The notes below the pieces were generated by a model, which searched no databases, was not told the origin of the DNA, and saw nothing but the letters and a program-made list of their open reading frames with translations. A program made the position numbers and the translations under genes. A stretch of DNA of 31,039 bases. Origin: an uncultured Gemmatimonadota bacterium (GTDB lineage Bacteria; Blakebacterota; Blakebacteria; Blakebacterales; Blakebacteraceae). Shown in pieces: positions 28,278 through 31,039 of the stretch. The number at the start of each line of letters is the position of its first letter. Position 1 is the first letter of the stretch. The stretch is from assembly GCA_964576115.1 (NCBI GenBank), contig CAZNUA010000010.1, forward strand, positions 62,001 through 93,039, read 5' to 3'.

Positions 28278-28395
28278 TGCACAATATATTGTGCAGTTAG
28301 CATGATGTAGTGCACAATCTGTCTCACGGCATTTTAACTCATTCTACGACAGATGCGCGTAAATACTCACTTTTTTGTGCACAATATATCGTGCA
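28278..28395. promoter_or_regulatory. Repeated palindromic regulator-binding sites (putative upstream activator sequences)
   Basis: TGCACAATATATTGTGCA (28278-28295, perfect palindrome), half site TGCACAAT (28311-28318), TGCACAATATATCGTGCA (28378-28395, one mismatch). Confidence 0.75.
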
Positions 28396-28471
28396 GCACT
28401 GAAAAGACCTGGAATACGGTCGGGAAGGTGCATTCGCGAAATATTCGTCTTCCAGGGCGGACGATGATCTT

Positions 28472-28486
28472 CGGCACGGTTGTTGC
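28472..28486 (+). promoter_or_regulatory. Sigma54 (RpoN) -24/-12 promoter
   Basis: CGGCACGGTTGTTGC matches YGGCACG-N4-TTGC with GG-N10-GC spacing, about 70 nt upstream of the radical SAM start. Confidence 0.7.
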
Positions 28487-28557
28487 GCTACTGGACACCA
28501 CTCTGCCGCAGGTCAACCGGACACCCGCGATACCGATGCAGGAAGGGCCGAATCCGC

Positions 28558-29961
28558 GTGCAGTCACTTCTTCTGATCGACCCCGCCAGGCGGGATGGAG
28601 TCCCCGAACTGTACGAAAACCTCGGACTGGCAACCCTGGCGGCCTGTGCCCGTCGTGCCGGGCATCCCACCGACGTCCTGCTCAGCCATGTGGAAGGGTG
28701 GTCCACCCGCCGGCTCGGACGGGAGATCATGGCCCGTCAGCCTGACGTCCTGGGGGTCAGCCTGCTCAGTTTCAACGCCCGCCGAATCCTGAATCTGCTG
28801 CGCCGGCTCACCTCCGAAGGTCTGCGCAGCCGGATCGTCATCGGGGGCCACTTTCCGACCTTCAATGATGAAATCCTGCTCGAGGAGTGGCCCGAACTCT
28901 CTGTCGTCGTGCGCGGTGAGGGCGATTTTACTCTGCCCGACCTGCTCGCGGCCTGGGAGCGGGACAGTGATCTGGAGACGGTGCCGGGCATCAGCTTCCG
29001 CCGGGACGGGGGCATCGTTCGCACGCCCTTCCGCCCCCTGGTCGATAACCTCGATACGATCCCGTGGCCCGACCGGGATTACACGGCCCGGATCCTGGCC
29101 CTGAAGGGAACCCTGAACGTCGCCCGCGCCCGCGGGTGCTTCGGGAAGTGCGCCTTCTGTTCGATCGCCGCCTTTTACCGCTCTCAGGGCGGAACTCCCT
29201 GGCGGCAGCGCAGTATCCCCGACACTCTGGCCGAGCTCGAGAGTCTGACCCGGCGATTCCCCGGCGCCCGGGTGAAGTTCCTCGACGATCAGTTCATCGG
29301 ACCGGGCCGCAAGGGACGCGAGGATGCCCTGGCCTTCGCCCAGGCCCTGAAGGAGAGCGGCCTCGAGCTGCGTTTTTCGATCTTCTCACGCTCCGACACC
29401 GTCGACGAGGATCTCTTCGCGGCTCTGAAAGATGCCGGTCTGGTGCAGGTCTTCGTCGGAATCGAATCGGGCAGCCAGCGTCAGCTCGATGACTGCGCCA
29501 AGCACGTCACGGTGGCGCAGAACCGCGAGTCGATGGAGATCCTGCACCGGCTCGGACTGCAGTTCTACCTCGGCTTCATCGCTTTCGATCCCTACACCCG
29601 GGTCGAGGACGTCGGCGCCACGCTTTCCTTCATGATGGACACCCAGCCGCTCTGGAGCGCGAAAGGGAACATCCTCTCGATCGAGAACCAGGCCATCGTT
29701 TACAAGGGGACGCCCTTTTACGACCGCCTGACGGCCGAGGGACGACTGGGCGGCGACTACATCGACTGCACCTACCGCTTCGAGGATCCGAAAGTGCGCT
29801 GGCTCTGCCGGCTTTCCTGGCTGGTCCTCACCGTCATTCTGCCGACCTTCGCCTGGTTCAGGCACCTGCCGGCCCACCTCACCTTCTTCGTACACACCCT
29901 GCGCAGGAACCTGCGTCCGGTGCGCGGACGCTCGCGACAGCCGCAGGAAACAACAGCATGA
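28558..29961 (+). CDS. B12-binding-domain radical SAM protein
   Basis: Cobalamin-binding N-domain ('ENLGLATLAA', 'PDVLGVS', 'IVIGGHFPTF', 'VVRGEGD'); 'RGCFGKCAFC' CxxxCxxC; 'FLDDQF'; 'VFVGIESGS'. GTG 28558 follows GGAAGG. Confidence 0.92.
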   Translation: MQSLLLIDPARRDGVPELYENLGLATLAACARRAGHPTDVLLSHVEGWSTRRLGREIMARQPDVLGVSLLSFNARRILNLLRRLTSEGLRSRIVIGGHFPTFNDEILLEEWPELSVVVRGEGDFTLPDLLAAWERDSDLETVPGISFRRDGGIVRTPFRPLVDNLDTIPWPDRDYTARILALKGTLNVARARGCFGKCAFCSIAAFYRSQGGTPWRQRSIPDTLAELESLTRRFPGARVKFLDDQFIGPGRKGREDALAFAQALKESGLELRFSIFSRSDTVDEDLFAALKDAGLVQVFVGIESGSQRQLDDCAKHVTVAQNRESMEILHRLGLQFYLGFIAFDPYTRVEDVGATLSFMMDTQPLWSAKGNILSIENQAIVYKGTPFYDRLTAEGRLGGDYIDCTYRFEDPKVRWLCRLSWLVLTVILPTFAWFRHLPAHLTFFVHTLRRNLRPVRGRSRQPQETTA

Positions 29962-30011
29962 GTTTCAGGAACGATCACACGCACACCACAATCGGGTGCT
30001 CCGGCACCTGA
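29958..30011 (+). CDS. Possible 17-aa peptide MSFRNDHTHTTIGCSGT
   Basis: ATGA overlap with the radical SAM stop and AGGA upstream; its TGA overlaps the RBS of the next ORF. May be chance. Confidence 0.25.
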   Translation: MSFRNDHTHTTIGCSGT

Positions 30012-30023
30012 AGGAGGACGATC

Positions 30024-30125
30024 ATGCGTTCGACCCTGTCCCGTATTCTCAGTATCGGCAGCTTTGTCTTCACACTCATCGCCAGCACGGGCGCCGCCTC
30101 ACGGCTCTATTACATGATTGACTAG
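30024..30125 (+). CDS. 33-aa peptide MRSTLSRILSIGSFVFTLIASTGAASRLYYMID, candidate RiPP or signalling-peptide precursor
   Basis: Consensus RBS AAGGAGG (30011-30017) 6 nt before the ATG; directly downstream of the radical SAM gene and upstream of a hairpin. Too short for the ORF track. Confidence 0.75.
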   Translation: MRSTLSRILSIGSFVFTLIASTGAASRLYYMID

Positions 30126-30170
30126 GAATTGAGAGGACCGCTCTCTGTAAAGTTGTTTCTTGAGAAAATG

Positions 30171-30216
30171 CGCCCCTGCGGCGGCGGGGTATGGCAGGCC
30201 GCAGGGGCGTGCTTTC
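30171..30216 (+). terminator. Hairpin after the peptide gene (terminator or mRNA stabiliser)
   Basis: CGCCCCTGCGGC (30171-30182) pairs with GCCGCAGGGGCG (30198-30209): 12 bp, 15-nt loop, weak T-rich tail. Confidence 0.5.
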
Positions 30217-30254
30217 CTGTGGGCGAGGGGGGCGAAAGCAGTATACTCCGGGGC

Positions 30255-31039
30255 ATGAACGGGCGGAGATACACGCGATTTCTCGACGGCCGGTGGGTGC
30301 TGGCCCTTCTGCTGCTTGCCGGCTGCGGGCGGGGCCACACCACCCTGAGAGTGGCCGCAGACGCCGATCCCTGTACCGCCCTTTTCCCCTACCAGGGCAG
30401 TAATGCCCAACTGCTCCTGGCCCATACGAATGTCTACGAGAGTCTGCTGACGCAGGACGACGAGGGCCGGCTCATTCCCCACCTGGCACGTGAGTGGCAC
30501 CTTGACACCACGGGCACCGAACTGACGCTTCAGCTGCGCCCCGGCGTCCGCTTTCACGACGGGACGCCGCTGAGGGCGGGAGCGGTCGTGGCGAGCCTGG
30601 AGCGGATTCTGGAAGCCGGCCCGGCGGACAGTCTGTCAGACATCCCGGACCTGAAAATGCTTCTCGGTCACCCCGGGTCCATCACGGCGCTCGACTCGTT
30701 GACGGTGCGCATCCTCATGCCGCGGCCGCACGTCCCCATACTCAGAACGCTCTCGGTTCCCTTCTGGATCCCCATCACCGGGAGCGATGTGCCGGTACCC
30801 GGCTCAGACCCTGTCCCCTGCGGCACGGGACCCTATCGCTACCGCCGTCTGCGGACCGCAGACGGATCAATCTTCCTGGAGATGAATCCGGATTACTGGG
30901 GACGGCCGGGATCCATCCCCCGAGTCCGGATCAGCCTGCAGCATAAATATTTCTCTGTACTGGAGGCTATGATCGACGGCCGGGTCGATCTCTGCACCCC
31001 GCTCTCGCACACCGACCTCGACCGGGTGCGCAAGCGGGA
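30255..31039 (+). CDS. Family-5 (OppA/DppA-like) substrate-binding lipoprotein, 3'-truncated by window
   Basis: Hand translation: MNGRRYTRFLDGRWVLALLLLAGC (lipobox), 'NVYESLL....GRLIPHLAREW', 'LRPGVRFHDGTPL', 'PCGTGPY', 'NPDYWG'. The frame stays open to the window end. Confidence 0.88.
   Translation, partial: MNGRRYTRFLDGRWVLALLLLAGCGRGHTTLRVAADADPCTALFPYQGSNAQLLLAHTNVYESLLTQDDEGRLIPHLAREWHLDTTGTELTLQLRPGVRFHDGTPLRAGAVVASLERILEAGPADSLSDIPDLKMLLGHPGSITALDSLTVRILMPRPHVPILRTLSVPFWIPITGSDVPVPGSDPVPCGTGPYRYRRLRTADGSIFLEMNPDYWGRPGSIPRVRISLQHKYFSVLEAMIDGRVDLCTPLSHTDLDRVRKR

Follow-up and report, generated by a model that had tools for sequence, protein, structure and literature searches.

Does the end of a 31,039-nucleotide stretch of DNA from an uncultured Gemmatimonadota bacterium (hereafter the window) encode a new peptide-signalling system? 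Between positions 28278 and 31039, an earlier note on this DNA had pointed out palindromes, a −24/−12 promoter recognized by σ54, a gene for a cobalamin-binding radical S-adenosylmethionine (SAM) enzyme, an open reading frame (ORF) for a 33-aa peptide, a hairpin and a gene for a family-5 lipoprotein, and had proposed that the enzyme modifies the peptide and that the lipoprotein, a solute-binding protein (SBP), senses or imports the product. All of these elements are present in the sequence. Our analysis reveals that the locus is a real, conserved, undescribed cassette, of which the window feature is, as judged from gene order in related loci, the front half, and the cassette may work as a new loop for peptide feedback or signalling in two little-known phyla.

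The cassette is a core, syntenic locus of one small phylum. Enzyme orthologues (53–81% identity) are found in 9 of the 10 genomes that represent the phylum, the one miss being a genome that is 83% complete, and a scan with 19 close enzyme sequences added 13 further metagenome loci. As mapped by tblastn, the gene order is uniform across the loci: CHASE2-cyclase, a 270-aa lipoprotein on the opposite strand, enzyme, peptide, SBP, kinase, activator and receiver. The kinase follows the SBP in 8/8 and the activator is present in 6/6 of the loci that extend far enough. One mark of a locus for peptides that are made on ribosomes and modified after translation (RiPPs), a short ORF that lies beside the enzyme gene and is conserved with it, is found in 15/15 loci of this phylum and in 2/2 genomes of a second phylum.

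The second phylum emerged from a 401-genome sample, in which enzyme matches outside the first phylum come from G073, G151 and G364 at E values up to 1e-60 and from G094 at E values up to 1e-50. G073 (complete, 5.0 Mb) and G151, which alone represent their phylum in the sample, both carry the cassette. It comprises a perfect σ54 promoter (TGGCATacaatTTGCA), genes for a receiver, for the enzyme (41% identity) and for a 30-aa peptide, a terminator, a promoter and the SBP lipoprotein. The two 30-aa peptides, MRKMYRLISLVASIVFALCTIQRYPPLTAA and MAKIFRLLSLIAGIVLSLGSTYRFPPLVSS, share the build of the 33-aa peptide, with a basic start, a hydrophobic stretch, an Arg and a short tail. In both genomes, the spacer contains a canonical terminator, then a −35/−10 promoter before the SBP lipoprotein. 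The G073 locus continues with a sCache-HAMP-PAS kinase and an NtrC-type regulator, while the G151 contig stops within the SBP gene. The enzyme homologues of G364 and G094 (34–36% identity) stand without the cassette, and these genomes were ruled out as carriers. Homologues of the radical SAM gene thus keep a conserved 30–33-aa ORF and a family-5 SBP gene downstream in two phyla, the positive outcome of a check that the earlier note had proposed.

The enzyme gene occupies positions 28558–29961 of the plus strand. Its start codon is most likely the GTG at 28558, which gives a protein of 467 aa, the same form as in the protein collection. The protein matches the B12-binding (PF02310, 55.8 bits, 5e-15) and Radical_SAM (PF04055, 51.4 bits, 2e-13) families, both above cut-off, and residues C194, C198 and C201 of the CxxxCxxC cluster motif are invariant in 38/38 aligned sequences, verifying that the gene encodes a cobalamin-binding radical SAM protein. 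The N-terminal B12-binding domain, followed by the radical SAM core, places the enzyme in the class B type. The top Foldseek matches are OxsB, TsrM, AprD4, MgmA, TokK and CysS, and the nearest solved structure is that of OxsB, a nucleotide enzyme. Compared with NCBIfam equivalogs, including ApyD, BchE, HpnR, HpnJ and the MCR Gln methylase, the enzyme reaches none at cut-off; the best score is to ApyD (140.8 bits, cut-off 750) and the next to BchE (118 bits, cut-off 481). Its ten nearest representatives likewise stay under every NCBIfam cut-off. At 50% identity, the orthologues fall into just one or two clusters, with the next relative at 41% and the nearest metagenomic relatives at 39–44%, and the wider family comprises 1766 representatives at E <1e-30.

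In the AlphaFold model of the enzyme (pLDDT 86.6), the C-terminal end is formed by two hydrophobic, basic helices (residues 411–435 and 437–452). We take this predicted helical hairpin (residues 411–452) as a membrane-surface anchor. Two observations on related enzymes may be added. A homologous cobalamin radical SAM domain (33% identity) occupies residues 4818–5262 of P0129, a protein of 5727 aa, and is fused there to a very large synthase-like protein. In G001, the enzyme gene (L007 / L023, 3343–4720) is split by a frameshift into parts of 376 and 170 aa, reflecting either a broken gene or an assembly error.

The peptide gene (MRSTLSRILSIGSFVFTLIASTGAASRLYYMID) lies at 30024–30125 of the plus strand and is preceded by a ribosome-binding site (GAAGGAGG, 30009–30016, plus strand), read from the sequence, with similar sites in related loci. 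The short ORF with its ribosome-binding site, as originally described, is therefore no isolated reading frame: it is kept in all 15 distinct loci that span the gap, with 33 aa in 14 and 32 aa in one. Residues M1, R7 and R27 never vary, at least 90% of the 15 loci keep F14 and G23, and the ratio of nonsynonymous to synonymous substitution rates (dN/dS) is 0.09–0.40 across nine pairs. These low ratios indicate that the ORF is a protein-coding gene under purifying selection. The gene is single-copy, with no paralogues in the genome, and a look-up of the peptide in the ESM Atlas returned no usable match.

The peptide has a basic N-terminus, then ~19 hydrophobic residues, and ends in a 6-residue tail behind an invariant Arg. 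From its composition, it looks like an inner-membrane micropeptide or a signal-peptide-like chain, not like a leader-core precursor. The charge distribution fits an N-in/C-out insertion, with which the tail would lie on the periplasmic side, next to the lipoprotein and the sensor domain of the kinase. The last five residues fall into clade types (YYMID/FLMMD, W-x-x-C-N/D, x-P-S-W/F-N/H, x-T-S-M-N and x-R-N-V-x), and the tail is clade-specific yet conserved within clades.

The gene for the family-5 lipoprotein begins at 30255 (plus strand), and its first 261 aa, including the lipobox LLLAGC, are encoded up to position 31039, which is the end of the window and of its contig, C10. The contig C50 starts with the last 55 bases of C10, and this 55-mer occurs in no other contig. 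The SBP reading frame is unbroken across the junction and continues at 3–830 of C50 (L004 in the coordinates below), giving 519 aa in total. Consistent with a single gene, the two parts match positions 2–186 and then 174–363 of the Pfam profile SBP_bac_5 (PF00496), with 97.9 bits for the window part and 55.4 bits for the C50 part. The break itself (31039 / L004 1–55) sits within the fastest-evolving gene of the locus, and strain-level polymorphism of the SBP in the source sample could be its cause. A lipobox is present in 9/9 full-length orthologues, and the nearest solved relatives are 5u4o, DppA, HbpA and GsiB, so that the assignment as an OppA/DppA-like lipoprotein holds. A DNGD-type motif aligns with DppA D408, the Asp that holds the alpha-amino group of the ligand, in 9/9 SBPs of this phylum, the alignment to DppA being indirect, via the G073 protein. 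The genome has five family-5 SBP genes, of which only the one on C2 precedes ABC permease genes; BPD_transp_1 matches are confined to C2, C3 and C9, with none on C10 or C50 and none in the related loci.

Beyond the junction, the SBP stop codon is overlapped by a gene for a HAMP histidine kinase (L004 827–2344) with two transmembrane helices, HAMP, HisKA and HATPase. It is followed by a gene for an NtrC-type regulator (L004 2349–3728) composed of REC, σ54 AAA+ and HTH_8 domains, and by a receiver-only gene (L004 4071–4609). Reading past position 31039, as the earlier note had suggested, thus yielded the kinase and the σ54 activator, and neither a peptidase nor an ABC permease gene.

The sequences upstream of the enzyme gene point to control by this activator. 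Two palindromes lie ~195 and ~95 bp 5′ of the −24 element: TGCACAATATATTGTGCA at 28278–28295, an exact match (0 mismatches), and TGCACAATATATCGTGCA at 28378–28395, with one mismatch to TGCACAATATATTGTGCA. Their architecture is TGCACAAT-N2-ATTGTGCA, their centres are 100 bp apart, and the pair is far above chance, with two matches obtained in 0/100 shuffles of the window. A partial third copy of the half-site (GTGCACAATCTG...) is located at 28311–28328, between both full sites. Allowing up to four mismatches, the genome contains seven sites, four of which make up two pairs, one here and one on C50; the latter copies, at L004 3753 and 3857, lie directly 3′ of the activator gene and before a second σ54 promoter.

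The −24/−12 element, cGGCACggttgTTGCg, spans 28472–28487 of the plus strand, with GG at 28473–74 and GC at 28485–86 in the canonical GG-N10-GC spacing. As a motif match alone it is weak, with two mismatches to TGGCAC-N5-TTGCW, and because of these a motif search allowing one mismatch did not call it; the single match of that search lies inside the SBP gene and is at chance level (43/100 shuffles equal). Support for the promoter comes not from the motif score but from its conserved position: the element lies 55–89 nt before the enzyme start in 16/16 loci, three of which are near-duplicates of others, with position and core kept. In related loci, palindrome-like sites again occur ~95 and ~195 bp 5′ of the element, the distal one in most of them. 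The combination of palindromes and −24/−12 promoter proposed for this region is thereby upheld.

The second σ54 promoter, TGGCATgtaaaTTGCg, at about 4008–4023 of L004, is a good match and precedes the receiver-only gene; promoter and receiver gene are both present in 6/6 loci that extend far enough. The genome also contains rpoN, so that a GG-N10-GC core, upstream sites, a bacterial enhancer-binding protein with REC-AAA+-HTH_8 and the sigma factor gene are all found. We propose the palindromes as binding sites of the NtrC-type activator and infer both binding and activation. Very probably, then, the regulatory wiring consists of a sensor module, activator sites and two σ54 promoters, with the enzyme-peptide unit as output.

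The spacer between the peptide and SBP genes suggests where this unit ends. A GC-rich stem-loop with a 13-bp GC stem and no T run, the hairpin of the original description, is located at about 30170–30211 (plus strand), and a strong hairpin (−27 to −45 kcal/mol), itself variable in sequence, follows the peptide gene in 15/15 loci. Downstream, a −10 box, TATACT, at 30242–30247 (plus strand) lies 7 nt before the SBP start codon as part of a putative promoter, and TATACT, TATAGT or TATATT is found 6–9 nt before that codon, without a Shine-Dalgarno sequence, in 14/15 loci, suggesting that the SBP gene probably has its own promoter and a leaderless mRNA. A scan with consensus promoters and terminators called neither the box nor the hairpin, because the former has no −35 match and the latter no T run, and the fold of the whole spacer has a z-score of only −1.48, with 15/200 shuffles as good. 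The argument for a terminator and a separate promoter is accordingly one from conservation. On that basis we read the hairpin as a terminator or attenuator that closes the enzyme-peptide unit, followed by the promoter of the sensor operon. The σ54-dependent unit would then comprise the enzyme and peptide genes only, and the hairpin and the conserved −10 box would set this pair apart from the sensor genes as the regulated output, to which read-through may add feedback.

The genes of the locus diverge at very different rates. The SBP evolves fastest: in the closest pair, the window and L025, its identity is 42%, as against 88% for the cyclase, 81% for the enzyme, 82% for the peptide and 77% for the lipoprotein next to it. 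Likewise, the periplasmic part of the kinase is 15–40% identical across loci, versus 56–82% for its cytoplasmic part.

The model that we favour, with a probability of roughly 0.4 for the model as a whole, is a feedback loop through a modified peptide. The family-5 lipoprotein, the HAMP kinase and the NtrC-type activator, the latter two encoded on the next contig, would be expressed from their own promoter. The activator would bind the paired palindromes, so that the −24/−12 promoter drives the enzyme and the 33-aa peptide, and the second σ54 promoter, with the same sites, would drive the receiver-only protein. Held by its C-terminal hydrophobic helical hairpin on the membrane's inner face, the enzyme would modify the peptide, C-methylation being the most likely reaction, as with other cobalamin radical SAM enzymes that act on peptides. 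The peptide would insert N-in/C-out or be cut after its small-residue stretch, and the clade-specific 6-residue tail behind Arg27 would be read in the periplasm by the fast-evolving lipoprotein and the sensor domain of the kinase, closing a feedback or cell-to-cell loop. Counted in its favour are the gene order, promoters and palindromes kept across loci, the closed unit of enzyme and peptide in two phyla, the fast change of the SBP and of the kinase's periplasmic part, the relatedness of the SBP to DppA, HbpA and GsiB, its Asp at the D408 position in the first phylum and the lack of ABC permease genes on C10 and C50. For the enzyme, the best named match, though far under cut-off, is the peptide β-methylase ApyD, and its C-terminal helices are hydrophobic and basic. 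The loop proposed in the earlier note survives in part: a kinase, an activator and palindromes at a second promoter have been added to it, while the hairpin and the −10 box speak against simple co-transcription of the sensor genes with the enzyme.

Several findings weigh against this model. The sequence analysis gives no direct sign that the enzyme acts on the peptide, that the peptide is exported or that the SBP binds or senses it, and prediction of an enzyme-peptide complex gave an ipSAE of 0.01 (alignments of 19 rows for the enzyme and 15 rows for the peptide), which is evidence neither way. The pigment and lipid enzymes HpnR, HpnJ and BchE match the enzyme with a weight similar to that of ApyD. 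No match to a RiPP recognition element (RRE) or PqqD-like Pfam family was found in the enzyme at E values up to 0.1, and the unit has no extra small gene, although an RRE is not required by every RiPP enzyme; nor is a peptidase or exporter present among the genes mapped in any locus. The hydrophobic helix makes up most of the peptide, which is unusual for a precursor. The SBP of G073 has Asn at the position of DppA D408 and Glu at that of R355. The enzyme is well conserved (56–81%), unlike the polymorphic ComQ, and tail identity is only weakly correlated with relative SBP divergence (rho 0.62, p 0.19, six independent sister pairs). Finally, since the sensor genes have a separate promoter, feedback is possible but not needed to explain the layout.

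Part of the same evidence fits explanations in which the enzyme and the peptide are not partners, or the SBP does not read their product. The peptide could be a small regulator that sits in the inner membrane, acts on the kinase and is produced at that kinase's command, in the manner of MgrB and PhoQ, with the enzyme as a separate output that has another substrate. Its basic N-terminus, ~19 hydrophobic residues, short tail and constant length suit such a role, as do its place under the system's own activator, the lack of an RRE, peptidase or exporter, and a kinase sensor part that diverges quickly, as the tail does. At 33 aa it is also, like known small membrane proteins, too short for co-translational targeting. 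What this explanation leaves unaccounted for is the closed two-gene unit of enzyme and peptide in two phyla, and the conserved helix face that it might predict is not apparent, since the helical periodicity of peptide conservation is not significant (801/5000 shuffles equal); we regard it as possible but rather doubtful. Much the same standing, that of an unlikely though serious contender, belongs to the proposal that enzyme and micropeptide form a membrane-bound enzyme for a lipid or small molecule, while the SBP and kinase sense an outside, nutrient-like ligand (a short peptide, or a glutathione-like or opine-like compound) unrelated to the micropeptide. The scores of BchE, HpnR, HpnJ and the ladderane lipid enzyme come close to that of ApyD, the C-terminal helical hairpin is suggestive of membrane association, a separate promoter serves the sensor genes, and nutrient-sensing kinases that depend on an SBP are known in CBP-ChiS and, as reported, with CuaD. 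A nutrient sensor, however, would not be expected to fall to 42% identity while its neighbours stay at 77–88%, and a mere anchor would have no need for a tail that is specific to clades yet conserved within them.

An ordinary secreted RiPP, such as an antimicrobial, regulated by a two-component system that senses nutrients or density and whose SBP does not read the product, appears improbable. The enzyme does adjoin a short peptide, and some members of the wider enzyme family are fused to very large synthase-like proteins (5727 aa in one example), but the locus has a single peptide copy and a single enzyme, without exporter, peptidase or immunity gene, and it is a syntenic core locus in 9/10 genomes of the phylum rather than patchy like most product clusters. 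The modified-peptide feedback model also has a bolder form, which we offer only tentatively: an autoinduction circuit of new build outside Bacillota, in which a modified 30–33-aa micropeptide supplies, in its tail, the ligand of a dedicated family-5 lipoprotein that signals through the kinase and the σ54 activator to the enzyme and peptide genes. In such a circuit, the tail would be set free by signal-peptidase-like cleavage or else be displayed from the membrane, and the fast divergence of tail, SBP and kinase sensor would amount to pherotype-like diversification.

The genes that flank the cassette are partly conserved with it. Directly 5′ of it are a CHASE2-adenylate/guanylate cyclase gene (25018–27276, plus strand; 59–89% identity in most related loci of the phylum) and the gene for the 270-aa lipoprotein, which has no Pfam match (27344–28156, minus strand; 61–86% identity, same position in most related loci). 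Because they keep their positions in most related loci, both may belong to the same functional neighbourhood as the cassette. At the other end, an 80-aa ORF (L004 4606–4848) overlaps the receiver gene in this genome alone; it matches no Pfam family, and tblastn finds no counterpart in the related loci searched. It is followed by a tRNA-Leu(CAA) gene on the other strand (L004 4978–5064) and then by a gene for a PAS-kinase-receiver hybrid.

In this cassette, a cobalamin radical SAM enzyme and a micropeptide are combined with a binding protein, a kinase and a σ54 activator. Modified-peptide signalling is textbook knowledge for Bacillota and rare elsewhere, and most of the known kinases that depend on a binding protein are known for nutrients. 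Should the peptide prove to be the substrate of the enzyme, the locus would offer a radical SAM-peptide pair that is new and has a compact substrate; should the tail prove to be the ligand of the binding protein, it would offer a new receptor logic for peptide sensing. Even read conservatively, it adds a well-defined σ54 regulon together with the operator motif, a sensor operon that is likely leaderless, and a 33-aa gene, verified here, of a kind that annotation pipelines tend to miss. The combination of radical SAM enzyme, micropeptide, SBP, kinase and σ54 was not found in the full-text literature searches made, as far as the abstracts show, in line with the earlier note, whose author did not recognize it as a described system.

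Individual parts of the cassette resemble known systems. PoyC is a peptide-modifying cobalamin radical SAM enzyme, and the present enzyme shares with it and with ApyD, its best NCBIfam match, the B12-binding domain and radical SAM core. ApyD contains an RRE and β-methylates the penultimate Tyr of its peptide (PMC10635010). The present enzyme, in contrast, has no RRE, measures 467 aa against the 645 positions of the ApyD profile, and scores far under its cut-off. A further parallel is offered by MgrB, which is made on the command of a two-component system and acts back on the kinase. The feedback of MgrB on PhoQ/PhoP is a reported case of a small membrane protein in a two-component system (PMC4974570). 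The 33-aa peptide is likewise a probable small membrane protein under two-component control and could act on the kinase from the periplasmic side; unlike MgrB, to which it bears no sequence similarity, it has a radical SAM gene and an SBP as partners, and its transcription would be σ54-dependent.

In CBP-ChiS of Vibrio, a kinase that depends on an SBP senses sugars and controls catabolism. The present locus is reminiscent of such three-component systems, CBP-ChiS and CuaD with its two-component system in Ruminiclostridium, in that an SBP stands beside a kinase and a regulator without an ABC permease of its own. Whereas these systems respond to outside sugars and serve catabolism, the present one has as its output a radical SAM enzyme, a micropeptide and a receiver protein, with an SBP of unusually fast divergence. 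In gene order, the locus matches ComQ-ComX-ComP-ComA, the quorum-sensing system of Bacillus, which runs from modifier and peptide to kinase and regulator. Both loci place a modifying enzyme and a short peptide before a membrane kinase and a response regulator, and in both the receptor is polymorphic in its sensing part and conserved in its cytoplasmic signalling part. In ComQXPA-type quorum sensing, the peptide is released and sensed by the kinase, and modifier, peptide and sensor co-vary; here, peptide secretion is no more than putative. The modifier also differs, being a conserved cobalamin radical SAM enzyme here and an isoprenyl transferase in ComQ, and the hosts lie outside Bacillota (the labels of relatives read Gemmatimonadota or only 'bacterium'). 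The present cassette also inserts a family-5 lipoprotein as a likely co-receptor, and its regulator is a σ54 activator.

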